A stretch of 64,000 nucleotides of DNA from Dictyostelium discoideum (lineage: Eukaryota). Location of the stretch: assembly GCA_000004695.1 (NCBI GenBank), contig CM000151.3, forward strand, positions 3,392,001 to 3,456,000, in the 5' to 3' direction. Below, piece by piece: positions 2 to 17,867 of this stretch. The position numbers were made by a program, and so were the translations under genes. The stretch's first letter is position 1. Each line of letters opens with the position of its first letter. The notes under the pieces were generated by a model. That model searched no databases. It saw only the letters and a list, made by a program, of their open reading frames with translations, and was not told the origin of the DNA.

Positions 2-1188
<1,187 letters not shown>

Positions 1189-1366
1189 AAAAAAAAAAAA
1201 TTAAAAAATTAAAATTTAAATAAAATAAAATATATATATACGCAAATGCATACAAAAAAACAAAAATAAAATAAAATAAAAAAACAAAAAATAAAAAAAT
1301 AAAAAAATAAATTATTATTATTAAATAATACAATAATTATTATCTTTTAAAATTTTAATGGGTTTT

Positions 1367-1402
<36 letters not shown>

Positions 1403-2302
1403 TTTTATTTTCTTATTTTGTTTTTTAAAGAGTAGATTAACAATAAATATATTTATAAACTTTTATTAGTAGTGATTACTATTATTGAAGAGATTATTCC
1501 CATTTCAAGTATATTATTATTTTTTTTTTTTTTTTTTATTGTTTTTTTTTTTTTTTTCTTTATTTTTTATTTTTATTTTTTTCAATTCATTTAAGGGGGA
1601 AAAAAGGAGAAGTATTTAAAATATTAACCTAAACTAAATTGTATATATTAAAAAAAAAAAAAAAAAAAAATTTTTGGTAAAGTTTATTTTTTTTTATATG
1701 TATAATACCGATATTAATAATATTGAAGGGGTTATCGAGAGATAAAAAATAATAATAATAAAAATAAAAATATTAATAGTTCCTATTACAGAAATTTACA
1801 ACATTTATAATTTCATAGGACAACACCAGGCGGACTTAGGAAATTTCTTTTTTTTAATTTATTTTTTTTATTTTATTTTTTATTTTATTTTTTTTATTTT
1901 TTTTTTTATTTTTTTTTATTTTTTATTTTTTTTTTTAATTAACTATTTAAATTTTTTTTTTTTTTTTATTTTTTAATAATTGAATTATAAGTATTAAAAA
2001 CAAAAAAAAAAAAAAAAAAAAAACGAGGGTGTCTTTTTTAATTATATTCTTTATTAAAATACAAAATTCCCATTTTTTATTAATTTAATTTTTTTTTTTT
2101 TTTCAAAAAAAAAAAAAAAAAAACTACCCATTTTTATAAACACATTAAATTAACAAACCCCCCAAAACAAATAATTATAATAATAATAAAAATATAAATA
2201 AAAAGTAAAAAAAAAAAAAAAAAAAAAATTTAAAAATTTTTATTATTTTTTTTTTTTTTTTGTGCGAGCTTTACCCCACCCTAAAGATCTTCCTTTTTAA
2301 AA

Positions 2303-3619
2303 ATGTCAACAATTAAAATTAGTTCGTTTTTTAAATCCATTTTTTCAACAATAAATGGTAAAGATAAAAGTATTAATTTAAATAATAATGACAATATAAA
2401 AAATAATAATAATAATAACAGTATAAAAAATAATAATAATAATAATATAAAAAATAATAATCCTAGTGATAATGATATAAAACCAACAGAAGGAGGGATT
2501 GACGATATGACATTAATAACTGCAACATCATTAACAATACCTCCAACTAAAGGTGGAGATTATATTGAAAGCGATACATTAAAATCAATGTTAATCATTG
2601 ATGATACAAATGATGATAATAGTAGTACCACTACAGTTGGTTGTGGTGACAATAATGAACAACAACAACAACAGCAACAACAACAAGAACAACAACAAGA
2701 ACAACAACAAGAACAACATGAAGAATTTAAAATACCTATGATTCAAATTCAAACACCACAAATAAATGATAATAATATAGAATGGCCAACGTGGTGCAAA
2801 GATTATGAAAATCGGTATGATCTTAGACCAATATCAAGGAATGGATTAGATGATACAAGCAATAGATTAAATTCAGGATTCAAAGGTGAGAATTTTGTCT
2901 ATCAAAATACAAAATTTGTTTCAAAATTATATTGGAAGGGTAATAGCCCAATATTTGGTGATATTGAAGTTGACCCTGACAATAATAATAATTTTGACAT
3001 AACAGCCAGTCCAACTAGTGGTGGTATCAAACAATTAAATATAAGAACAAGTTATAATGGTATAGTAAATGAAGATGACGATAGAATGTTATTGGGTATT
3101 GTTTATTGGAAAAACACAAGCGAAGGTCCACCTGGTTGTGTTCATGGTGGTGCCTTGGCGAGCATGTTTGATGATAGTATGGCATGCTGCATAAGATATT
3201 TTTATAATAATAATTTTGATGATTTAAATTTACAAAAACAAAAACAAAAACAAAAACAACAACAACAAGAACAAGAACAACCACAAGGAAATAGGAATGG
3301 TATAGTTATACCACCAATTACAAATTCAAAAACTTATGTTGTAACAGCAAATTTATCAGTAAATTATAAAAAGTTTGTTGTATTGGAAAGTTTTAGTTCG
3401 GTTGAAACAAGAATTCAAAAAAGAGATGGTAAAAAGATTTTTATATCCTCAACTATTAAAGATCAAAATGGTGTTATTAGAGCCGAATCAACTGCAATTT
3501 GGATCGTCGTAAAAATTGATACACCAATTAGTACAACTTCATCACCACCTTCATTCCTTTCACCATTACCTTCTCCAACTTCAAATAAATTAAATGAAAA
3601 TAAATTAAATGAAAACGAA

Positions 3620-3671
<52 letters not shown>

Positions 3672-3715
3672 TTCAATTTGATAATAATAGTTGTAGTAGT
3701 AAAAATTCAAATTAA
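2303..3715 (+). CDS. Hotdog-fold acyl-CoA thioesterase-like protein (4HBT/PaaI/THEM-like) with a long low-complexity N-terminal region.
   Basis: Motif PPGCVHGGALASMFDDSMACC is the HGG...D signature of 4HBT-type hotdog thioesterases. The ORF has Dictyostelium codon usage, with poly-N/Q tracts. Confidence 0.65.
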
Positions 3716-4864
3716 TAAAAAAAAATGATAATAGCGCATCATCATTAATTTTATTAATAAACTAAAATAATATTTAAAATTTTTTTTTTTTTTTTTACAA
3801 AAAATATATATACTTTTTTTTTTCTAATTTTTTGCTCGAAAATAACAATTAAATAAATATGACCAATGAAACGAAAAAAAAAAAAAATAAAAAAAAAAAA
3901 GAAAAAAAACTTATACAATTGGAAACTTTTTTATTTTTTTCTTTTTTTTTTCTCAAGTTTAATCATGATGTTAAAAAAAAAAAAAAAAAAAAACATACAC
4001 ACATATAAACAAACACATACTGATTATAAATACAAAAAATTAGAATGTCATTCTTATGACACGATTGATATGTTGTCGTTTGGTTTTGGTATGAAACGTC
4101 TAGAAAAAAAAAAAAAAATTAAAAAAAAGCAAAAAAAAGCAAAAAAAAGCAAAAAATAAAAATAAAATAAAAAGCAAAAAATTTAAAAAAAATAAATTAA
4201 AAAATAAAAATAAAAAATAAAAATAAAAAAAATAAATTAAAAATAATTAAAATAAGAACAAAAGACTTCAAGGTTCGCGAACCTTTTTAGATTTGTTGGG
4301 CGATTTTAAGTTAAAAATAGGTTTTTAAAAAAAAAAATAAAAAAAAATAAAAAAAAATTAAAAAAAAATTATAATAATAAATTGGCGTAGCAAATTGTTA
4401 CATATTATATTCTACAACCATTTTATTTAACAAAAACATTAGATATTTTTTAATTTCCTTTTTTAAATTGATTAGTATTCATCATTATTCTACACCCCTT
4501 CTTTTTTTAAAAATAAAAAATTAGATATTGATTATTTGCTTCTTATTTTTTAATGAAGCCTCCAGGTTTTTTTTTTATTTTAAAAATAATAAAATAATAT
4601 TTTTTTAATTATTTTTTGAGTTTAAGGATAATTTACCAAAAAAAAAAAAAAAAAATATAAATTGATTGAAAAATTATTTTTCTAATCATTTCAAAAAAAA
4701 ACAATAATTTAAAATTATAAATTTTATTTTGACTAAATAAAATATAAATAATATTTAAATAAATAAAATTTTAATTTATATTATTAAATTAAATTAAATT
4801 AAATTAAATTTTTTAAAAAAAAAAAAACCCGAACTAAAAAACAAATCATAAAGCTAAAAATAAA

Positions 4865-4904
<40 letters not shown>

Positions 4905-4908
<4 letters not shown>

Positions 4909-4946
4909 AAGAGGATAAAACTTTTCAATCAATTAGAATTTCCGAA

Positions 4947-5003
<57 letters not shown>

Positions 5004-5440
5004 TTAAATAATAATAATGATAATGATTATGATTATGATTCAATAAATAATATTGAAGAAAAATTTGAAAATGTTTCAAAAGAATTAGAAGGACAATCAA
5101 TCAAATTTAGAGAAATTGATGGTGGTAAAAATAATAATAACCATGATATTGAGTTGGGTGAAAGAAAACCAGAAAATGAAGAAGATTTTAAATTAAGACA
5201 ATATTTTGAGGATTCTCAAAGACAAAAAATGTTAATTAATCATAAACCAAAGAAAATGGGTGTTTCAATTAAAAATTTAACTGTTGTTGGTCAAGGTGCT
5301 GATAATTCTGTAATTGTTGATAATTCAACACCATTTAAAGCTTTAGGAAAATTATTAAATCCTTTTAATTAGTAAGTAAAATTTTTAAATTTTTTTTTTT
5401 TTTTTAAAATAAATTGAATTCAAGTATTAATATTTATTTA

Positions 5441-5478
<38 letters not shown>

Positions 5479-8400
5479 AAAAGTTTTAAAAAAGATAAAA
5501 ATAAAATTAATACATTTAATATATTAAATGATATTAATGCATTTATTGAAGATGGTAAAATGTTATTAGTATTAGGTAGACCAGGTGCAGGTTGTTCAAC
5601 TTTATTAAGAGTAATTGCAAATCAACGTGAATCATATATTTCAGTTGATGGTGATGTAACATATGGTAATATTGCAGCAAGTGATTGGTCAAAATATAGA
5701 GGTGAAACTCTTTATACAGGTGAGGAAGATATTCATCATCCAACTCTAACAGTTCGTGAAACATTGGATTTTACATTAAAATTAAAGACACCAGGTAATC
5801 GTTTACCAGAAGAAAGTAAAAGAAATTTTAGAACTAAAATCTATGAATTATTAGTTAGTATGTATGGTTTAGTGAATCAAGGTGATACAATGGTTGGTAA
5901 TGAATTTGTTAGAGGTTTATCAGGTGGTGAAAGAAAAAGAATAACAATTACAGAGGCTATGGTTTCAGGTTCATCCATTACATGTTGGGATTGTTCAACC
6001 AGAGGTTTGGATGCAGCATCAGCCTATGATTATGCAAAATCCTTAAGAATCATGTCTGATACATTAGATAAAACTACAATTGCATCATTTTATCAAGCAT
6101 CAGATTCAATTTATAATTTATTCGATAAAGTTATTGTTTTAGATAAAGGTCGTTGTATTTATTTTGGTCCAATTGGTTTGGCAAAACAATACTTTTTAGA
6201 TTTAGGATTCGATTGTGAACCACGTAAATCAACTCCAGATTTTTTAACTGGTATTACAAATCCACAAGAACGTATTGTTAAAGTTGGGTTTGAAGGTAGA
6301 GTACCAGAGACTTCTGTCGATTTAGAAGATGCTTGGAAGAAATCACAATTATTCCAATCAATGAAACATGCTCAATTAGAATATGAAAAACAAGTTGAAC
6401 AACAAAAACCATCTGTTGATTTTAAAGAACAAGTATTGAATGAAAAAAGTAGAACAACTTCTAAAAACTCTGAATATAGTTCTAGTTTTTATGCTCAAAC
6501 AATTGCTTTAACTCAAAGACAATTAAGTTTAACTTGGGGTGATAAATTTACATTAACTTCACGTTTTCTAACTATTCTTGTATTATCATTTATTTTTGGT
6601 GGTATTTATTTCCAACAACCATTAACAACGGATGGTTTATTTACAAGAGGTGGTGCTATTTTCACTTCTATCATTTTCAATTGTATTTTAACTCAAGGGG
6701 AGCTCCACGGTGCTCTATCAGGTCGAAGGATCTTACAAAAACATAAAAGCTATGCTCTATATCGTCCTTCAGCTTATTTTGTTTCACAAATTCTAATTGA
6801 TATTCCATTTATATTGGTTCAAGTATTTTTACATTCATTCATAGTTTATTTCATGTATGGCTTTGAATATCGTGCTGATAAATTCTTTATATTTTGTTTC
6901 ACATTGGTTGGTGTATCATTATCAAGTGCTTCATTATTTAGAGGTTTTGCAAATTTTACTCCATCTTTATTTACTGCACAAAATTTAATGAATTTTGTTT
7001 TCATTTTTGAAGTAAATTATTTTGGTTATTCTCAAACTCCAGATAAAATGCATTCTTGGTTTAAATGGACTTATTATAGTAAGTTTTTTTTTTTAACTTC
7101 ACTTTATTTAAAATATATTTTAACTTTTTTTTTTTTTTTTTTTTTAATAATAGTTAATCCATTAGCATATGCATTTAAAAGTTTAATGATTAATGAATTT
7201 AAAGGTTTAGATTTTTCATGTTTAGATAGTGCTATTCCATTTGATCATTTTAATAATTCAACATATTCTGATATGTCACATAGAATTTGTGCAGTACCAG
7301 GTTCAATTGAAGGTTCTTTGTCTGTTAAAGGTGAAAATTATTTATGGGATGCATTACAAATTAATAGTGATCATAGAGCATTAAATGTTGTAGTAATTTT
7401 CTTATTTTGGTTATTTTATATTGGATTGAATTTATTCGCCGTTGAATATTTCGATTGGACAAGTGGTGGTTATACTCATAAAGTATATAAAAGAGGTAAA
7501 GCTCCAAAATTAAATGATGTTGAAGAAGAAAGAAATCAAAATCAAATCGTAAAGAAAGCAACTGATAATATGAAAGATACTTTAAAGATGAGAGGTGGTC
7601 TTTTCTCTTGGAAATCAATTTCTTATACTGTACCAGTAGCTGGAACAAATAAATTACTATTGGATGATATTATGGGTTGGATTAAACCTGGTCAAATGAC
7701 TGCTTTGATGGGTTCATCAGGTGCTGGTAAAACAACCCTACTCGATGTATTGGCAAAAAGAAAAACCATGGGTACTGTAACTGGTGAATCATTATTAAAT
7801 GGTAAGCAATTGGAAATTGATTTTGAACGTATCACTGGTTATGTTGAACAAATGGATGTTCATAATCCAGGTTTAACAGTTAGAGAGGCATTAAGATTCT
7901 CTGCAAAACTTCGTCAAGAACCATGGGTACCATTAAAAGATAAATATCAATATGTTGAACATGTTTTAGAAATGATGGAAATGAAACATTTAGGTGATGC
8001 TTTAATTGGTACTTTGGAAACTGGTGTTGGTATTTCAGTTGAAGAAAGAAAAAGATTAACAATTGGTGTTGAATTAGTTGCAAAACCACAAATTCTCTTC
8101 CTTGATGAACCTACATCAGGTTTGGATGCTCAATCATCATATAATATTATTAAATTCATTCGTAAATTAGCCGATGCGGGTATGCCATTGGTTTGTACAA
8201 TTCATCAACCATCATCAGTATTATTTGAACATTTCGATCGTATTCTTTTATTGGCTAGAGGTGGTAAAACTGTTTATTTCGGTGATATTGGTGATAAATC
8301 AAAAACTTTAACATCATACTTTGAACGTCATGGTGTTCGTCCATGTACTGAAAGTGAAAATCCAGCAGAATATATTTTAGAAGCAACTGGTGCAGGTATT

Positions 8401-9522
8401 CATGGTAAGACCGATGTTAATTGGCCAGAAGCTTGGAAACAATCATCAGAGTATCAAAATGTTGTCAATGAATTGGATCTTTTAAGAACAAAAGAAGAAT
8501 TGGGAAAATATATTTTAGATAGTGATTTGCAAGTCGATGGTAAGCAAGCACCACCAAGAGAATTTGCAAATGGTTTCCTAACTCAATTCATTGAGGTTTA
8601 CAAACGTTTAAATATCATTTATTATCGTGACGTTTTCTATACAATGGGTAGTTTTGCTCAAAGTGCTGTATCTGGTTTAGTAATTGGTTTCACTTTTTAT
8701 GATTTAAAAAATAGTTCATCCGATCAACAACAAAGAATCTTTATGAGTTGGGAAGCAATGATTCTTGGTGTATTATTGATTTATTTGGTTTTACCAATGT
8801 TTTTCATTCAAAAAGAATATTTCAAACGTGATACTGCTAGTAAATATTATTCATGGCATGCATTCTCCTTGTCTATGATTGCCGTTGAAATTCCATATGT
8901 AGTTTTATCAAGTACTTTGTTTTTCATTGCAACCTATTGGACCTCTGGTATTGATTCAACCGCTAGTGCAAACTTTTACTATTGGTTAATGCATACAATG
9001 TTTAGTGTTTATATTGTTTCATTTGCTCAAGCTTTAGGTGCTGCATGTGTTAATATCGCCATTTCAATCGCTGCTTTACCAATTGTTCTCTTTTATCTCT
9101 TTTTACTTTGTGGAGTTCAAATTCCACCACCAGCAATGAGTTCATTCTATCAAGATTGGTTATACCATTTAAACCCTGCTAAATATTTCTTGGAAGGTTT
9201 AATCACTACTGTATTAAAACCAATTGAAGTTTTATGTACTGATGTAGATTTAATTAAATTCACTGCTCCAAGTGGTACCGATTGTCAAACCTATTCTGCA
9301 CCATTCCTCCAACAAGCTACTGGTTATGTTGTTCCATTAAGTAATACTACAAACGAATGTGGTTATTGTATTTACAGTTCAGGTTCTGATTATTTCGAAA
9401 CAAGTTTAGGTTGGGATTATGGTCATCGTTGGAGAAATTTTGGAATTATTGTTGCTTATTGGGGTAGTTCAATTTTAGCAGTATTATTCTTTGTTTATCT
9501 CACTCAAAAACCAAGACGTTAA
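4905..9522 (+). CDS. ABC transporter, G family, full-size PDR-type (NBD-TMD-NBD-TMD), 3 exons.
   Basis: Exons about 4905..5371, 5484..7078 and 7154..9522. Intron 1 runs GTAAGT at 5372 to AG at 5483, phase 2. Intron 2 runs GTAAGT at 7079 to AG at 7153, is 75 nt, and restores the PDR motif WTYYINPLAYAF. Walker [10 protein letters not shown] and [12 protein letters not shown] signatures LSGGERKR and VEERKR, and two 6-TM blocks. Confidence 0.88.
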
Positions 9523-9996
9523 ATAATAATAATAAAAATAATAATAAAAATAATAAATAATAATAAATAATAAATAATAATAAATAATAAATAAATAATA
9601 AATAATAAAAATTAAATTAATTAAATAAATATTAAATATTCTAAAAAAAAAAAAAAAAAAAAAAGAAAAGAAAAAAAAAAATTTCTTTTAATAAAATAAA
9701 ATAATATTAATTGAAAAGACTTTTTAATGGTATAACCAATCTTGATAAAATTAAATCATTGATGTTGCAACTTGCTAATTTACACTTTTTTTTTCTTTTC
9801 TAAAACACTTTTTTATGTTTTTTTAATAAAATACAAAGTTAAAAAATTAATTATTTAATTCAAAATTACAAAAAAAAATAATGGCTTGGAGTATCATTTA
9901 TTAATTCGATCTCAAATGAGCAATGTTTGATATTATTTTTAATATTTATATAACTTTAATCAGATTATCTTTTTTTTTCTTTTTTTTTTTAAATAC

Positions 9997-10034
<38 letters not shown>

Positions 10035-10430
10035 AATCTTAGATTTAAAAATAAAAACATTGGTTTTTTTTTTTTTTTTTTTTTTTTTTATTAAATTTTA
10101 TATTTTTATTATTATTTTATTGGTTTTTTATTTTTTTTATTTTTTTATTTTTTTTTATTTTTTTTTTGGTATCCCAACAATCCCAATTAGATATCATCAC
10201 TCAAAACCAGTGAAAATAAATTTGCCGAAATTTCTTATTTTCATTTTTTTTTTGATTTTTTATCATTTTTTTTTAATGAAAAAAATAATAAAAAATCAAA
10301 AAAAAAAATTAAAAATAAAATAAAAAAAAAAAAAAAAAAAACCTCTAAAGGAAACGAGGTTTTTTTTAAAAAATAATTCGGCAAAAACACATTAACATTT
10401 TTAAAAATAAAAAATATATAAATTTTAAGA

Positions 10431-11471
10431 ATGAATCAAAATAAAAATAATAATAATAAAAATCCAAAAATTAATTTATTAATTATTGGATGTGGTTGTA
10501 TTGGTTTATCAACAGGTATTATTGCATTAAAGAGTGGTAATTATAAGAGTGTATCAATTTGGGCCAAAGATTTACCACCAAATACAACCTCAAATAAAGC
10601 AGCAGCATTATGGTATCCATTTTTATGTAATCCACTAGATTTAGTTGGTAAATGGTCAGCAGAAACCATGCAATATTATAAAGATCATATTATTAATGAC
10701 CCAAAATCAGGTACAATCACAAAGAAAGTAAATGAAATTTTCAGACGTCCACATCCAGAAGATCCAGAATGGAAACCATACATTAAATCATTTAGAAGAG
10801 CTAGAAAAGATGAACTACCAGATGGATATGTAGATGGTTATGCAATTGATGACGGTTTCGTTATGGACACTGATATGTATATGGATTATTTAGTCGACCA
10901 ATTCAAAAGTTTAGGTGGAATCATTGAACAAAGACACCTCGTTGATATTCGTGAAGCTTTTGTTGACCATGATGTAGTTGTAAATTGCACCGGTTTAGGA
11001 TCACGTGAATTATTCAATGATCGTACAATTTATCCAGGTCGTGGTCAAATTATCGTTATTAAAAACTCAACCGATCGTTCAATCATGGATGAAGAAGATC
11101 ATATCGCATATGTAATTCCACGTTTAACAAATACAGTTTTAGGTGGTACAAATCAAGAACACGATTACAATACAAATCCAACTAAAAAAGATACTGAAGA
11201 AATCTTAAAACGTGTAGCCATGATTTCACCACGTTTTGCTAAAAATAGAATTGAAATTCAAGGTGTTAAAGTTGGTCTACGTCCTGCTAGACATGAAATT
11301 CGTTTAGAAAATGAATTCTTTGAAGGTGGTTCAAAATTAGTAGTTCATAACTATGGTCATGGTGGTAGTGGTTTCACTGTAAGTTGGGGTTGTGCTATTG
11401 AAGCAATTAAATTAGTTGATCAAGGTTTACCAAAATTATTACATTTTAATAAATTAATAAGTAAATTATAA
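10431..11471 (+). CDS. FAD-dependent D-amino-acid oxidase / D-aspartate oxidase family (DAO), intronless.
   Basis: N-terminal Rossmann fold LLIIGCGCIGLSTG, and C-terminal HNYGHGGSGFTVSWGCA matching the DAAO HNYGHGGxG motif. Confidence 0.8.
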   Translation: MNQNKNNNNKNPKINLLIIGCGCIGLSTGIIALKSGNYKSVSIWAKDLPPNTTSNKAAALWYPFLCNPLDLVGKWSAETMQYYKDHIINDPKSGTITKKVNEIFRRPHPEDPEWKPYIKSFRRARKDELPDGYVDGYAIDDGFVMDTDMYMDYLVDQFKSLGGIIEQRHLVDIREAFVDHDVVVNCTGLGSRELFNDRTIYPGRGQIIVIKNSTDRSIMDEEDHIAYVIPRLTNTVLGGTNQEHDYNTNPTKKDTEEILKRVAMISPRFAKNRIEIQGVKVGLRPARHEIRLENEFFEGGSKLVVHNYGHGGSGFTVSWGCAIEAIKLVDQGLPKLLHFNKLISKL

Positions 11472-11584
11472 AAAAAAAAAAAGTAATATTAAAAAAAAAG
11501 TAATAATAAAATAAAAAAAAAGAAAAGTTTTTTTAAATTTTAATTAATTTAAAAAACAAATATTTAAATGTTATTATTACAATA

Positions 11585-11595
11585 AATTATTATAA

Positions 11596-11645
<50 letters not shown>
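11585..11645. repeat. (ATT)n microsatellite.
   Basis: About 20 perfect ATT units, directly visible. Confidence 0.9.
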
Positions 11646-11647
<2 letters not shown>

Positions 11648-11659
11648 TTTATTTTAAAC

Positions 11660-11940
11660 TAATTCTTAAACGATACTCATTTTTTCAAAAATTTCATCTA
11701 TTTTTAACTTTTTAAATTTTTTAACATTTTCAAATAATTGAACGTTACTCATTTTTTAAAAAATTGTGAGGTAACCATGGGATTTTTTCTCTCATTTTTT
11801 CAAAAATTTCATTTATTTTTAACTTTCTTAATTTTTTCTCATTTTCAAATAATTAAACGTTACTCATTTTTTAAAAGTTTGGGTGGTAACGTTGGGATTT
11901 TTTCTCTTATTTTTTCAAGTTTTATTTTAACAAATTCTTA
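11660..11940. repeat. Tandem repeat of a 115-120 bp unit, about 2.3 copies, of unknown function.
   Basis: Two near-identical units carrying tcattttttcaaaaatttcat.tatttttaacttt...caaataatt.aacgttactcattttttaaaa...ggtaac(ca/gt)tgggattttttctc. Sits between the DAAO gene and the next gene. No ORF with coding character. Confidence 0.6.
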
Positions 11941-12066
11941 AAAAAAAAAAAAAACAATATAAATACCAATTATGTATTGAAAAAAAAAAAAATCATTTCA
12001 AAAACAAATAAACTAAAAACAATAAATTTTAAAACAAATTCTTAAAAAAAAAAAAAAAAAAAAAAA

Positions 12067-12843
12067 ATGACAGCTGTTGACAATACTAATACTGGTTCAA
12101 TTCAATTTAATTCAAATTTTGTTTGTCCAAAGAATAGAAAAGAAATTGGTGAACTTATTGATCAATTTAAAAACTCATCTGATGGTGTTCCAAAAACCAG
12201 AGAAGAAATTAAGGAATATATTTCATTAATTAAGAAACAATATCGTGGAGATAAAAGAAAATTAAGACTTGAAAATAAAAGTCAATCTGGTAGTTCCAAA
12301 ACCACTGAACAAAGTGCTACAAATATAAATCCAATCCAAGTTCCTTCAGTTACTACAACCACCTCAACAAATGATAGTGATGAACAAAGTGTTACAACTA
12401 CAAATACTACAAATTCAAATCAAACCCAAAACCAAGTTCCTTCAGTTACCTCCACTACTACAACCACTTCAACAAATGACAGTGACGAGCAATGTGTCAC
12501 AACTACAAATACCACAAACTCAAGTCAAACTCAAATCCAAGCTCCTTCAGTTGCCTCCACCACTACTACAACTACTTCAACAAATAATGGTGATGATGTT
12601 AAAAAATCAATTAAAGAATTAAGAGAATTAATTAGAAAATTAAAAAAGTCATCTGAAACCCCAAAATCAAAAAAAGAAATTCGTTCAATTCAAAATCAAG
12701 AAAAATCACAAACATTAAATTATAATGAGTTTAAAAACACCAAAAGTGAAAATGTTCAAGTTGGACAAAATACTAAAAAACCATACTGTCATCATTATCG
12801 TAGAAATCGTTTAAATGATTGTAATACAAATTTAATTTCTTAA
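12067..12843 (+). CDS. Hypothetical Ser/Thr-rich protein with three roughly 40-aa tandem repeats (VPSVTTTTSTNDSDEQSVTTTNTTNS...).
   Basis: ORF with Dictyostelium codon usage and internal repeats at DNA and protein level. The stop at 12841-12843 is followed by 57 in-frame stop-free codons (see findings). Confidence 0.5.
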   Translation: MTAVDNTNTGSIQFNSNFVCPKNRKEIGELIDQFKNSSDGVPKTREEIKEYISLIKKQYRGDKRKLRLENKSQSGSSKTTEQSATNINPIQVPSVTTTTSTNDSDEQSVTTTNTTNSNQTQNQVPSVTSTTTTTSTNDSDEQCVTTTNTTNSSQTQIQAPSVASTTTTTTSTNNGDDVKKSIKELRELIRKLKKSSETPKSKKEIRSIQNQEKSQTLNYNEFKNTKSENVQVGQNTKKPYCHHYRRNRLNDCNTNLIS

Positions 12844-13129
12844 GTTGAAACCAATGTCAAACCAAAACTCCAAAATGAATCTGATCATAGTCAAGCTAGT
12901 TCACAAAAACTTGAAAAATTAAAATTTAAGAAAGAAATGTTATTAAGAAAAATTTCAATTGTTGAAAATAAAATTGAAACACTCAATAAATCTCAATCAA
13001 CCACAGTATCCCTCTAAACTATACAAAATCACCTCCTTTTATAATAAAATAAAATAAAATAAAAGTTATTAACTGTTTCTATTAAAATTATATTTTATTA
13101 TATTTTTTGTTGTACTATTAATTATTATT

Positions 13130-14719
13130 TTATAAATTTAAATTAATAAAATCAAGTTTATCTTGAAGTATTGCATTTGTAATTTCTCTAACATCAATAT
13201 CAGTTCTTCTATCATTTTCAAGTATTGGAATAATTTTTATAATTGAAGAATAAAGTTTTTGGACTTTATTTGGTAATTTAAAATTTTCAATAGATTTCAT
13301 TCTAAGACTAATGGCTTGAAAAGCTATGATTAAAGTCATTGAAACAATATCACATAGTTTAATTAACATTGATGCAGCACCATTTGCAGAGTGTAATCCT
13401 AAACTAACAATATCTTGATTAAACTGTTCAGTTGTTAAACTATGTATACAAGCAGGTGCGGCTTCTTGTCTTAACCAAACTACTAATGAAGTTTGAGAAA
13501 TTTGCATTCCTTTATAACCTTGATAAATTCCAGGATTTGGACTTAGGGAATTTGGTAAACCTTTAGAGAATTCACTATGCATCATTAAAGCAACTAATGA
13601 ATGTAAATGATTGGCAACCAAAGATATATCCAATTTAATACCATCCATTATTCTAGCAATATGATTACCCATAAAATTACCACCACTTAATACATCACCA
13701 TAATAAGGATCAATTAATGGATTATCATTAACTGATAAAATTTCTCTTTTTATTACAATTTTTGCATTACTTATATTTTCAGATATTATACCCAAAATTT
13801 GTGGAGCACAACGTAATGAATAAACTTCTTGTACTGATTTATCCAATTTCTGAACATTTTCAGATTGATTGAATGTAATATTACTGCTTTTGGTATTATT
13901 ATCGCTAGTATTAAAATATTTATTTAAAATTTGTGCAATTAAAATTTGACCTGGATGATTTTTTAAATTATGAATTCTCATATCGTAATGATCTTTTGAA
14001 GCTAATAAACCTTCAACTGCCAATGCGATACTACCAATTGCAGCTTTAAAAATAGTTTCAAATTTATTAATTGAAATACAACTAACTGAACTCATTACTC
14101 TTGTACCATTTACTAATGCCAAACCTTCTTTTGATTTTAAAACTAGTGGTTCAATAGATGTAATTTTTAAGGCATCTGAAGCATTCATTAATTTTTCATT
14201 ATACTTCACCATACCTTTTCCACATAGCACATTAGCAATATAACTCAAAGGTACTAAATCACCACTTGCCCCTACTGATCCATGCATTGGTACTTGTGGA
14301 ATTATACCTTTATTTAAATGTTTAGCCAATGTTTGAATTACCATTGGTCTAACACCTGACCAACCTCTTGAAAGTGCAATTATAATAATAAATTGTATAC
14401 CTCTAACATATTGATCATTAAAAAAATCACCAGTGCCACAAGTTAAAAAATCCAATAAATTACTTTGATGATAATCTAATTTATCAAATGGAATTATTAA
14501 ATCACCATTACCACCAAAACCAGTGTTTATACCATAAATTGCAACATTTTCTTTTAATTTATTTTCTAATTGATCTCTTCCTTTTTGTAAAAATTCTAAT
14601 AATTCATTAGTGAAAATAATATTTTTTTCACCTTTACTAATACTAATAATATCATTAATTTCTAAATTTTTATTTTCACCATCAATTAAAAAATTATCTT
14701 TATGGTTTGTTTCTATCAT
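13130..14719 (-). CDS. MIO-dependent aromatic amino-acid ammonia-lyase (HAL/PAL/TAL family), intronless, 529 aa.
   Basis: YGINTGFG, the GSVGASGDLVPLS Ala-Ser-Gly MIO triad, and downstream ALVNGT. Length and architecture match the bacterial-type HAL/PAL fold. The selectivity-switch position reads LLDFLTCGTG, i.e. Phe-Leu where true HALs have Ser-His. Confidence 0.85.
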   Translation of the reverse strand: MIETNHKDNFLIDGENKNLEINDIISISKGEKNIIFTNELLEFLQKGRDQLENKLKENVAIYGINTGFGGNGDLIIPFDKLDYHQSNLLDFLTCGTGDFFNDQYVRGIQFIIIIALSRGWSGVRPMVIQTLAKHLNKGIIPQVPMHGSVGASGDLVPLSYIANVLCGKGMVKYNEKLMNASDALKITSIEPLVLKSKEGLALVNGTRVMSSVSCISINKFETIFKAAIGSIALAVEGLLASKDHYDMRIHNLKNHPGQILIAQILNKYFNTSDNNTKSSNITFNQSENVQKLDKSVQEVYSLRCAPQILGIISENISNAKIVIKREILSVNDNPLIDPYYGDVLSGGNFMGNHIARIMDGIKLDISLVANHLHSLVALMMHSEFSKGLPNSLSPNPGIYQGYKGMQISQTSLVVWLRQEAAPACIHSLTTEQFNQDIVSLGLHSANGAASMLIKLCDIVSMTLIIAFQAISLRMKSIENFKLPNKVQKLYSSIIKIIPILENDRRTDIDVREITNAILQDKLDFINLNL

Positions 14720-14865
14720 TTTTTTAAAATTTTTTGGATTTTAAATTTAATAGTAATTATATATTCTTTTTTTTTTTTTTTTTTTTTAAAATTTAATATT
14801 AAATTTTTATTTATAAAAAAGTGTTTAAAAAATAAAAAATAAAAAAAATATATAAAGATAATTTA

Positions 14866-14899
14866 ACATGTGTTAATTTAATTAAATTAACACATGTAA
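14866..14899. promoter_or_regulatory. Near-perfect palindrome (arms about 19 bp) in the divergent intergenic region between the lyase and DyP genes.
   Basis: atttaacatgtgttaattt / aaattaacacatgtaaat are reverse complements with one mismatch. It lies about 150 bp upstream of the lyase ATG and about 400 bp upstream of the DyP ATG. Confidence 0.4.
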
Positions 14900-14904
14900 A
14901 TACG

Positions 14905-14955
<51 letters not shown>

Positions 14956-15006
14956 AATATTAATCTTATATTATTTCTAACCCAATATTATTTATTTTTA
15001 TATTTT

Positions 15007-15043
<37 letters not shown>

Positions 15044-15141
15044 ATTTAATTTTTTTATTTTTTTTATTCCACCACCCAACAGAAAACACAAAACTATTAT
15101 TTTTAGTTTTTTTTATTTTTATTTTTATTATTTTTCAAACA

Positions 15142-15181
<40 letters not shown>

Positions 15182-15289
15182 TTAATATTATTATAATTTT
15201 ATAATTATTTTTTAAAAATTAATAGATTAATTAAAAGATCTTTCACTGGTACTGTTAATATTAATAACAGTAAATTTTTAAATTTTAAA

Positions 15290-16210
15290 ATGGCACAGTC
15301 AACAGTGTTACCAATGCATTGTTTATATGGCATATTTTTAGAAGGAAATTTAAAAATTCAAAAAAATGACCAAGAGGGATTAAAGAAATTTAAAGATAAT
15401 ATAAAGAAATTTACATTAGAATTGGATGAAATCGATAAGATATCACCACAATCTAGAATTGGAGGTGCAATTTGTTTTAGTTCTGATATTTGGGACACTG
15501 TAACAAAGAAAATATCAAAACCAAAAGAATTGAAATCCGTAAACACTTTAAGTTCATACATGCCAGGCACATCTCAAAGAGACATCCTCATTCATATTAT
15601 CTCTGATAGAATGGATACGTGCTTTAAACTAGCACAAGATACAATGAGAAATTTCGGTGAAGATCAATTAGATATCAAGCAAGAGATTCACGGATTTCGT
15701 AGAGTTGAAGAAAGAGATTTGACCGACTTCATCGACGGTACTGAAAATCCTGACGGTGACGAACTGCGTACACAATATGGTCTCGTTGCAGCCGGCCAGC
15801 CAAATGAATTTGGCAGTTACGTTTTCACTCAACGGTATGTTCACAACTTAAAGAAATGGTATCCTGAACCATTATCAGTTCAGCAAGATACAGTTGGAAG
15901 AACTAAAAAAGATTCAATTGAAATACCAAGAGATAAACGTCCAATTACTTCACATGTTTCACGTACTGATCTAAGTGAAAATGGTAAAGATTTGAAAATA
16001 GTTAGGCAATCTCTCCCCTATGGTCAAATTACTGGTGAAAAAGGTCTGATGTTTATAGCATACGCTTGTAGTTTACATAATATTGAAAAACAACTTCAAA
16101 GTATGTTTGGTCAATTAGATGGTAAACATGACCTACTCTTAAAATATACAACACCAGTAACTGGTAGTTTTTATTTTGCACCATCAAAAAAAGAATTATT
16201 AGAATTGTAA
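15290..16210 (+). CDS. Dye-decolorizing (DyP-type) heme peroxidase, intronless, 306 aa.
   Basis: Distal DyP motif FIDGTENP (GXXDG) and overall DyP fold residues. The 306-aa length fits a bacterial-type class B DyP like the one described in D. discoideum. Confidence 0.85.
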   Translation: MAQSTVLPMHCLYGIFLEGNLKIQKNDQEGLKKFKDNIKKFTLELDEIDKISPQSRIGGAICFSSDIWDTVTKKISKPKELKSVNTLSSYMPGTSQRDILIHIISDRMDTCFKLAQDTMRNFGEDQLDIKQEIHGFRRVEERDLTDFIDGTENPDGDELRTQYGLVAAGQPNEFGSYVFTQRYVHNLKKWYPEPLSVQQDTVGRTKKDSIEIPRDKRPITSHVSRTDLSENGKDLKIVRQSLPYGQITGEKGLMFIAYACSLHNIEKQLQSMFGQLDGKHDLLLKYTTPVTGSFYFAPSKKELLEL

Positions 16211-16280
16211 ATAAACAAACAAATAAATAAATAAATTAAATAATAAATTTTATTTTATTTATTTTTGTTTTTGTTTTTTC

Positions 16281-17106
16281 TTATGGGACAATTACAAAAC
16301 CACTAAATGGAATACAAAGTATATTCTTTGGATTACAACTATGACCACCCCATGCCTTATTGAAAGAACCATCAGCTAAATTATAAGATTGAATAATATC
16401 TGTTTTAGCTTTATGGGATGATTCTGAATCAGATGTTGATTCTGATCCAAAATAAAATTCATCATCATCACCACCATCATTTCCATTTCTTTGAATATTT
16501 TTAAAACTACCATGTCCACCAAATGATAATGGTGATGAAAGTCCAGTACCTGATGTACCTGATGTACCTGATGAACCTGATGCTGAGCCTGATGCTGAAC
16601 CAGTTGAAAATCCACTTGATTCTGATGATGATTCTGATGATGACTCGGATGATTCTGATGATGATGATTCTGATGATGATGGTGGATTTTCTTTTTTAGA
16701 AGCATATGGTACTTCAACATAAATATGATTTTTAGTTAATGCTAATGAACCAGGTAAACCACTAACTTGACCATTAAAAATACCAATTAATTTAATTGAT
16801 CTAATTAATTCACCAGATTTACTAATTTGAATGATCATATCACCTTGATAGGATGGTACTGAAACGTAGATACTATCTTGAGAATCTTGTGAAATGGTTA
16901 TACCATTATAAGCTATTCTATCATTCTCATTGATTGGATTAAATTGTTTTAATAATTTACCAGAATTATCATAAACATAAATTACATTTATATCTGTAAT
17001 CCAAATATTACCATCACTATCACCTGCAATACCAGTTGTTGTATTAAATTCTGAATTTGAAATTATAAAATCTAAGTTTCCATCCTTTTTTTTTTTAAAA
17101 AAAAAA

Positions 17107-17150
<44 letters not shown>

Positions 17151-17867
17151 TTATTTTTACTAATTTAATTTTATTTAATAAACTTACGGTTGTATAAACA
17201 AATACTGCTGGTTGATAAGAATAATCACAATTACTATTTAAACTTGCAATGTAAACTTTATTATTTAGTTGGTCAACATTTAATCTTGAAAGTCCACAAC
17301 CAACTTTACCTTTAGTGTTGGTTTTTAAATTATTCCAAACTCCTTTAACAACTCCATTTTCATTAGCTTGATAAACACCTTGATGTGCATCTAATAATAA
17401 TAATGTTGATCCTAAAAATCCCATATCAACTGGTACACATCTTTCTGATTCATTCTATGTATATATATTTTTTTTTTTTTTTTTTTGTGATTTTATATGT
17501 TATATCAGAGGATGAATATATTAATAAAATTATTAATTTTCTAAACACTTTTCTTTTCTTTTTTTTTCTTTTTTTTTTTTCTTTTTTTGTTTATAAATAT
17601 ATTTACAGTTGATAAAAATGTTGTATAATTATAAATTGAATCACCACTTGTTGTAAATTCATAAAATTGGTTTGGATTTAAAGAAGTTGGATCTGTTAAT
17701 AAAATATTACCAGATTGAAAAGTTGAGGTTGATTCAGTACTACTGCCAGTACTACTATCGTCTTTATGATGTTTTCCAACAATTGAAATCAAATTTTTAT
17801 TATTGACAGAAACACTAAAAACACAACCAACAAAAATTAAAACAATAATAAAAGTGATTGATTTCAT
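16281..17867 (-). CDS. Secreted protein with a signal peptide, NHL/beta-propeller-like repeats and a Ser-rich (SSSESS)n region; 3 exons.
   Basis: Minus-strand exons 17867..17607, 17454..17188 and 17084..16281. Donors are GTAAAT and GTAAGT, and both acceptors follow long T/A runs, with phase 0 throughout. Signal peptide MKSITFIIVLIFVGCVFSVSV. Repeated segments of type YVYDNSGKLLKQF and IYVSVPSYQGDMIIQISKSGELIRSI. Confidence 0.6.

Follow-up and report, generated by a model that had tools for sequence, protein, structure and literature searches.

A phenylalanine ammonia-lyase of probable bacterial origin behind the 'hal-like protein' of Dictyostelium discoideum

Which amino acid is deaminated by the 'hal-like protein' of Dictyostelium discoideum? 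The gene lies in a 64,000-nucleotide stretch of the genome (GenBank assembly GCA_000004695.1, contig CM000151.3, forward-strand positions 3,392,001 to 3,456,000; hereafter the window, whose numbering is used unless another locus is named). Public databases carry its product as 'hal-like protein' or 'hypothetical protein', and the former name implies a histidine ammonia-lyase (HAL). The protein has Phe-Leu where a true HAL has Ser-His, and the purified enzyme is active on L-Phe. We are highly confident that the gene encodes DdPAL, a phenylalanine ammonia-lyase (PAL) that depends on a 4-methylideneimidazol-5-one (MIO) group and converts L-Phe to trans-cinnamate and ammonia, resembles the bacterial enzyme StlA, and was acquired from bacteria by horizontal gene transfer with subsequent adaptation to its host.

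The gene and the codons on which this assignment depends are the following.

13130..14719, minus strand: DdPAL gene, MIO-dependent phenylalanine ammonia-lyase (DDB_G0273787/DDB_G0273081), from the open reading frame (ORF), Pfam, the exact AX4 match and the published sequence
14534..14536, minus strand: codon of Tyr62, catalytic base in the inner lid loop (P. putida HAL Y53, AvPAL Y78), from the alignments
14444..14449, minus strand: codons of Phe91-Leu92, substrate selectivity switch (reverse complement TTT TTA)
14261..14269, minus strand: codons of Ala151-Ser152-Gly153, MIO precursor (GCA AGT GGT)
13811..13831, minus strand: codons of Gln297 to Arg303 (QEVYSLR), with Q297, Y300 and R303 for carboxylate and amine positioning (AvPAL Q311, Y314, R317), from the alignments
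13415..13417, minus strand: codon of Gln435, at the place of the imidazole-binding Glu414 of HAL, from the alignment

The ORF starts with ATG, is free of introns and encodes 529 amino acids. An exact-sequence look-up returns a protein of D. discoideum AX4 under two gene identifiers, DDB_G0273787 and DDB_G0273081; as one exact sequence bears both, we take the window to lie within the known chromosome 2 duplication of AX4. The gene has 26.4% G+C overall and 9.6% at third codon positions, and is as AT-rich as the genes around it, and so is a resident gene and not contamination. The DdPAL sequence printed in the supplementary information of Weise 2017 (Sci Rep, PMC5651878) is identical to the ORF product at 522 of 529 residues, with no substitutions. 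The gaps are letters dropped or duplicated in the machine reading of the PDF, and the published alignment numbers the protein to 529. The window product and the published DdPAL are one and the same protein, and the enzyme of Jendresen 2015 and Weise 2017 does not differ from it.

The enzymology of this protein is in print. Dictyostelium sequences were found through a 19-residue active-site motif taken from the AvPAL-cinnamate structure; the DdPAL gene was synthesised, and the purified His-tagged protein showed about 500 mU/mg on L-Phe and no significant product, measured as absorbance increase, with L-Tyr or L-His (Weise 2017, PMC5651878). The enzyme was also used for the amination of 16 substituted cinnamates, yielding (S)-alpha-amino acids (same study). 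According to Weise 2017, Jendresen 2015 had identified it earlier, in a search aimed at pathways containing tyrosine ammonia-lyase (TAL), and a 2019 review (PMC6390333) describes the activity reported in Jendresen 2015 (AEM) as exclusively on L-Phe. Published experiments show the enzyme to be specific for Phe as against Tyr and His, nothing in the evidence contradicts the PAL activity, and MIO formation in DdPAL is implied by the published activity. The finding is thus already known, horizontal transfer having been predicted in 2009 and the biochemistry described in 2015 and 2017, and DdPAL has since been put forward as a Phe-specific PAL for metabolic engineering, being named among the candidates for pathway engineering in a 2026 paper. 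What remains of value is the persistence of the database name, with a 2022 phylogeny (PMC9002059) still listing a D. discoideum 'HAL' that groups with PALs, and the question of what an amoeba does with cinnamate.

Substrate-selectivity residues

The best 120 database homologues were aligned by MAFFT together with the HAL of Pseudomonas putida (PpHAL), whose sequence was verified against PDB 1GKM beforehand (121-sequence alignment), and the codons of F91-L92, ASG, Y62 and Q435 were read by hand from the window DNA. The protein contains the motifs YGINTGFG (residues 62-69), SNLLDFLTCGTG (86-97, with DFLTCGTG at 90-97) and ASG (151-153). The alignment pairs the active-site residues as follows.

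DdPAL Y62: PpHAL Y53
DdPAL F91: PpHAL S82
DdPAL L92: PpHAL H83
DdPAL A151-S152-G153: PpHAL 142-144
DdPAL N204: PpHAL N195
DdPAL Q297: PpHAL Q277
DdPAL Y300: PpHAL Y280
DdPAL R303: PpHAL R283
DdPAL F349: PpHAL F329
DdPAL Q435: PpHAL E414

The columns place F91 and L92 of DdPAL on S82 and H83 of PpHAL, and in both proteins the second switch residue lies 30 positions after the catalytic Tyr (Y62 to L92 and Y53 to H83). A phmmer pairwise alignment with AvPAL (2NYN/3CZO/5LTM) runs ungapped from Y62 to beyond G97 at an offset of +16, giving Y78, L104, F107 and L108 as the AvPAL equivalents, with F91-L92 on F107-L108. Both switch columns hold Phe-Leu in 92 of the 120 homologues, including all 10 sequences of the genus Dictyostelium, so that the assignment of the switch is not due to chance; 14 of the 120 carry the TAL-type pair Tyr-His. 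Position 435 is Gln in every one of the 120, against Glu414 of PpHAL, and N204, Q297, Y300, R303 and F349 are likewise invariant among them.

The published alignment has Phe-Leu in StlA, AvPAL and PcPAL1, Ser-His in PpHAL, SgTAM and CmdF, Tyr-His in BagA, His-Leu in Sam8, His-Gln in RtPAL, Cys-Leu in TcPAM and Ala-Val in AdmH (Weise 2017). The same study reports that DdPAL matches 18 of the 19 residues of the AvPAL-cinnamate motif, the zymophore. Our own matching covers part of the zymophore, namely Y78, L104, F107, L108, the ASG triad, N223, Q311, Y314 and R317 of AvPAL. In the machine-read supplementary alignment DdPAL departs from AvPAL by Glu298 at Asp312 and by Leu328 at an Asn, either of which might be the differing zymophore residue.

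Family knowledge and the conserved residues suggest how the enzyme would work. Ala151-Ser152-Gly153 would cyclise autocatalytically to the MIO electrophile, which would capture the substrate amine, while Tyr62 of the inner lid loop would abstract the beta-proton. The carboxylate would be held by Arg303 with Gln297, Tyr300 and Asn204, and the aryl ring would lie in a hydrophobic pocket of Leu88, Phe91 and Leu92. Such a pocket would have neither a His for the hydroxyl of tyrosine nor the His/Glu pair that binds imidazole in HAL; with Gln435 in place of Glu414, neither an imidazole nor a phenol hydroxyl would find a partner in it.

An initial annotation, made from the window letters with translated reading frames, had claimed that Phe-Leu stands without gaps at the Ser-His place of PpHAL, that the ASG triad is intact and that the enzyme acts on phenylalanine or another non-histidine aromatic. 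The position is borne out by the 121-sequence alignment, the ungapped AvPAL pairing and the 30-residue spacing, and the triad by its alignment to PpHAL 142-144. The predicted specificity agrees with the switch, Gln435, a HutH profile score below the cut-off and the nearest characterised relatives (StlA, AvPAL and AdmH), and the choice between His, Phe and Tyr, for which an assay had been proposed, is answered by the published L-Phe-only activity. Two further residues had been named there as specific to HAL. Glu414 is indeed replaced, as is the His of Ser-His (by Leu92), but Tyr280 proved to be a family-wide residue that DdPAL conserves as Y300. A reading of the two-residue switch alone, from raw sequence, thus recovered the correct substrate call; the activity, termed unusual for an amoeba if confirmed, is confirmed but not new.

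The switch is not uniform among dictyostelids. The orthologue of Tieghemostelium lacteum (locus 10001-11599, 57% identity) has Ser-Leu (KLLDSLNCGTG) and not Phe-Leu, and its aryl pocket may be wider or otherwise different.

Family affiliation and horizontal origin

DdPAL scores 471.4 bits against the Pfam profile Lyase_aromatic (PF00221; cut-off 27.3), residues 19-479 spanning profile positions 1-453 of 466. By this profile match it is classed as a full-length member of the superfamily of MIO-dependent aromatic amino acid lyases and aminomutases. The scores against the more specific NCBIfam models are given below.

NF006871, HAL: 386.8 bits, cut-off 524, not reached
TIGR01225, HAL (HutH): 365.5 bits, equivalog cut-off 539.15, not reached
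TIGR04475, AdmH-type aminomutase: 343.3 bits, cut-off 800, not reached
TIGR01226, plant-type PAL: 295.3 bits over model positions 31-503 of 680, cut-off 519.15, not reached

The HAL models score highest among the specific ones, yet all four stay below their curated cut-offs. By sequence, the closest solved structures are AdmH (3UNV, the best at 235 bits), AvPAL and NpPAL, with P. putida HAL after these.

Comparison with characterised enzymes places DdPAL nearest to StlA. HutH of P. putida (1B8F/1GKM) has in common with DdPAL the fold family, the MIO triad and residues Y53, N195, Q277, Y280, R283 and F329, but differs in S82-H83 against F91-L92 and in E414 against Q435; DdPAL falls short of the HutH equivalog cut-off and has no activity on His. 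Plant and fungal PALs (TIGR01226; parsley PAL 1W27) catalyse the same reaction with the same Phe-Leu switch, but the plant enzyme is about 716 residues long with an extra C-terminal domain, against 529 in DdPAL, and its origin is independent, a separate event of horizontal transfer having been found by Emiliani 2009 (PMC2657906). The cyanobacterial enzymes AvPAL and NpPAL (2NYN, 3CZO, 5LTM, 2NYF) align ungapped around the switch and provide the equivalents ASG 167-169, N223, Q311, Y314 and R317, though they belong to a clade other than that of DdPAL. DdPAL is about 30% identical to MxPAL and PbPAL, two AvPAL-like PALs, and 48% identical to StlA (Weise 2017). StlA is like DdPAL in its Phe-Leu switch, ASG triad, NQD motif, length of about 530 residues and lack of a plant-type C-terminal domain. 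It differs in its bacterial host, in having His at the position of Ser345 and in feeding stilbene synthesis, part of an antibiotic pathway of Photorhabdus luminescens, whereas DdPAL has a eukaryotic host and AT-rich codon usage.

In a large protein collection, orthologues occur in D. citrinum, D. firmibasis and D. dimigraforme (80-85% identity), in D. purpureum as two paralogues (66-69%) and in T. lacteum (57%). Below T. lacteum identity falls to about 50-52%, and all matches there whose source is named are bacterial, most being without a source name. They include proteins of Photorhabdus and Xenorhabdus named 'phenylalanine ammonia-lyase StlA' by NCBI (50-51% identity over more than 92% of the length), and others at about 50-52% from Yersinia, Pectobacterium, Bradyrhizobium, Paraburkholderia and Acidobacteria. 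The same holds for the best 120 homologues, among which every non-dictyostelid with a named source is bacterial, most again being unnamed. Rooted on PpHAL, a neighbour-joining tree groups the dictyostelid sequences in a single clade, sister to a clade of StlA-type bacterial proteins. This pattern fits a single horizontal acquisition before the split of Dictyostelium and Tieghemostelium. Emiliani 2009 described in D. discoideum a eukaryotic-type HAL orthologue and a second homologue close to the PAL of P. luminescens, suggested transfer of the latter from soil bacteria and posed its role as a question.

The homologue of Bradyrhizobium sp. USDA 3364 (locus 1141-17325) stands by itself, surrounded by transposases (IS66 and rve) and a serine recombinase. 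The island that bears it is mobile or scrambled, in keeping with horizontal mobility of this clade of PALs.

Competing substrate assignments

The assignment as a histidine ammonia-lyase owes its standing to names, the source-given ones being 'hal-like protein' for DdPAL and 'Histidine ammonia-lyase' for orthologues, and to the two HAL models that top the NCBIfam scores at 387 and 365 bits; these scores lie far under the curated cut-offs of 524 and 539, His83 and Glu414 are replaced by Leu92 and Gln435, D. discoideum has the separate eukaryotic-type HAL orthologue of Emiliani 2009, and the reading is refuted by the inactivity of purified DdPAL on L-His (Weise 2017). We regard it as virtually excluded. 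A tyrosine ammonia-lyase, or a bifunctional PAL/TAL, could be suspected from the search in which, as related by Weise 2017, Jendresen 2015 met the enzyme, and from the Tyr-His switch of 14 of the 120 homologues. The switch of DdPAL is Phe-Leu and not His-Leu, Tyr-His or Phe-His, however, L-Tyr gives no product (Weise 2017), and the activity is exclusive to L-Phe in the review's account (PMC6390333), which makes this assignment extremely improbable. No better is the standing of a phenylalanine 2,3-aminomutase, for which one may cite AdmH as the top structural match by sequence (3UNV, 235 bits) and the 343 bits scored against TIGR04475. The cut-off of that model is 800 bits, AdmH has an Ala-Val switch and TSG instead of ASG, and DdPAL releases cinnamate and in the reverse direction forms (S)-alpha-amino acids (Weise 2017). 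A lyase is preferred over a mutase on all these points.

More room is left, though still little, for a physiological substrate other than Phe itself. The substrate in the amoeba could be a phenylalanine with a ring substituent, such as a halogen or a group in the meta position; chlorinated aromatics, DIF-1 among them, are made by D. discoideum. Whole-cell amination by DdPAL reached 67-85% with 2-bromo-, 2-chloro-, 3-chloro- and nitro-cinnamates against 25% with cinnamate, and 40% with 3-methoxycinnamate, on which BlPAL and MxPAL gave less than 1% and SrPAL performed poorly (Weise 2017). These figures, however, describe equilibria of the reverse reaction under high ammonia, a direction that electron-withdrawing groups generally favour in all PALs; L-Phe does undergo deamination, at about 500 mU/mg, and Dictyostelium is not known to contain a substituted amino acid of this kind. 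We consider a substituted substrate quite unlikely.

Several observations nevertheless weigh against an unqualified reading of DdPAL as a transferred, StlA-like enzyme of phenylalanine. The unsubstituted cinnamate was aminated less fully than were the majority of its ring-substituted analogues, so that Phe may not be the sole or the best substrate in vivo, and among the four enzymes purified DdPAL ranked lowest in both activity and stability (Weise 2017). All dictyostelid PALs have Ser345 (codon 13685-13687) where AvPAL has His359, while StlA and 95 of the 120 best homologues have His. The residue at this position is described as shifting into the active site when cinnamate binds and as influencing catalytic efficiency (Weise 2017), and Ser345 may be tied to the lower activity or the odd substrate profile of DdPAL. 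The neighbour-joining tree carries no support values. Our literature searches gave no cinnamate-derived metabolite, knockout phenotype or expression study for a Dictyostelium PAL and no paper addressing its function in the amoeba, and those by the identifiers DDB_G0273787 and DDB_G0273081 found nothing. An StlA-like L-Phe ammonia-lyase of bacterial descent remains by far the best account of the gene with these points included.

Neighbouring genes and the possible fate of cinnamate

Upstream of the PAL gene, and divergent from it, lies a peroxidase gene.

14720..15289, no strand: intergenic region between the divergent PAL and DyPA genes, 570 bp with 8% G+C, from the window sequence
15290..16210, plus strand: DyPA, cytoplasmic dye-decolorizing peroxidase (DyP), context only, from Pfam Dyp_perox_N and Dyp_perox_C

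The product is identical to the crystallised D. discoideum DyPA (PDB 7O9J), a characterised enzyme that oxidises phenolic and lignin-model compounds (PMC8230527). The initial annotation was right to place a DyP peroxidase next to the lyase, but the link that it hinted at between the two is not supported. Neighbourhoods were compared at five other dictyostelid loci and around three bacterial or metagenomic relatives, of which two have readable flanks and the third lies on short contigs. PAL and DyP are adjacent elsewhere only in D. firmibasis and D. dimigraforme; both also keep the flanking Nup192, and D. firmibasis the ABC-transporter gene (ABCG) as well. A DyP gene is absent beside both D. 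purpureum paralogues, beside the orthologue in T. lacteum and beside the two bacterial relatives with readable flanks. As the flanking genes are conserved together with the pair, the adjacency is ordinary synteny among close relatives and is probably coincidental. Functional coupling of PAL with DyPA, or their co-transfer, was rejected because the arrangement is confined to close and generally syntenic relatives.

The contrary proposal takes the two genes as a functional module with a shared promoter region, the Phe-derived aromatic of one being oxidised or coupled by the other. Their divergent orientation 570 bp apart, the retention of the arrangement in D. firmibasis and D. dimigraforme and the phenolic and lignin-model substrates of DyPA would suit it. 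Retention of the pair goes with retention of flanking genes, however, and PAL has no DyP beside it in D. purpureum, T. lacteum or either bacterial relative with readable flanks. Cinnamate has no phenolic hydroxyl of the kind that DyPs usually oxidise and is not a typical peroxidase substrate. The DyPA paper (PMC8230527) is silent on the neighbouring gene. A module is therefore very unlikely in our judgement, and we keep to the reading of local synteny. The spacer has extended runs of poly(T) and poly(A) and, around 14868-14909, an inverted repeat some 20 bp in size (acatgtgttaatttaattaaattaacacatgt); this could be regulatory sequence common to both genes or plain intergenic DNA typical of Dictyostelium.

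Pfam scans were run on 20 further ORFs of at least 150 amino acids across the whole window. They matched a tRNA intron endonuclease, an ABCG/PDR transporter, a DAO-family FAD oxidoreductase, Nup192, ComC-like proteins, a ZIP transporter, PP28, a tyrosine phosphatase and ankyrin and FNIP repeats; no polyketide synthase, CoA ligase or methyltransferase was matched among these ORFs. A biosynthetic cluster around the PAL gene within the window was rejected on this basis.

Genes of that sort do occur beside other dictyostelid and bacterial PALs. The second PAL paralogue of D. purpureum (P0012; GL870950.1, locus 10001-11563, plus strand) lies in a phenylpropanoid-like mini-cluster that spans 4350-13147 of its locus and includes the following genes.

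4350-5244, minus strand: O-methyltransferase gene of the Methyltransf_3/CCoAOMT family
6547-7119, plus strand: arylamine N-acetyltransferase
7690-9488, minus strand: DICPUDRAFT_147305, AMP-binding ligase resembling 4-coumarate:CoA ligase (4CL-like), divergent, with plant 4-coumarate:CoA ligases as best PDB matches (E = 2.6e-81)
12227-13147, plus strand: NmrA-type reductase

The best 120 matches of the 4CL-like ligase include close relatives from D. purpureum alone (86%, 50% and 42% identity), and none of them is a close D. discoideum orthologue. The cluster is thus a lineage-specific lead that says nothing direct about D. discoideum, whose PAL gene is not clustered with such pathway genes, and it was rejected as direct evidence for that species. 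In a bacterial relative from a soil metagenome (locus 5626-15670, 52% identity) the PAL gene stands between two AMP-binding CoA ligases, followed by an RND efflux pair, which suggests an operon for a metabolite based on cinnamoyl-CoA.

The ligases beside the D. purpureum and bacterial PALs fit a route from cinnamate to cinnamoyl-CoA, and the most likely role of the enzyme in vivo is the supply of cinnamate or cinnamoyl-CoA for a secondary metabolite. We propose tentatively, as a possibility short of an expectation, that the acquired PAL seeded a small phenylpropanoid-like pathway in dictyostelids, leading through cinnamate and cinnamoyl-CoA to a secondary metabolite that might serve in defence or signalling. 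A variant in which DyPA serves as an oxidative coupling step is weaker.

Two genes lie beyond the 3' end of the PAL gene: a PDR/ABCG-type ABC transporter with at least two exons (4905-9522, plus strand), syntenic in D. firmibasis, and a 346-residue FAD-dependent oxidoreductase of the DAO family (10431-11471, plus strand). There is no evidence of a link between either and PAL. The window also holds two low-complexity ORFs without a Pfam match. The ORF at 12067-12843 (plus strand) is rich in Thr, Ser and Asn and has an internal repeat of about 35 amino acids (…VPSVT(S)TTTT(T)STNDSDEQ.VTTTNTTNS.QTQ…), and that at 16281-16838 (minus strand) is rich in SE and SG repeats. The two bracket the PAL-DyPA pair.

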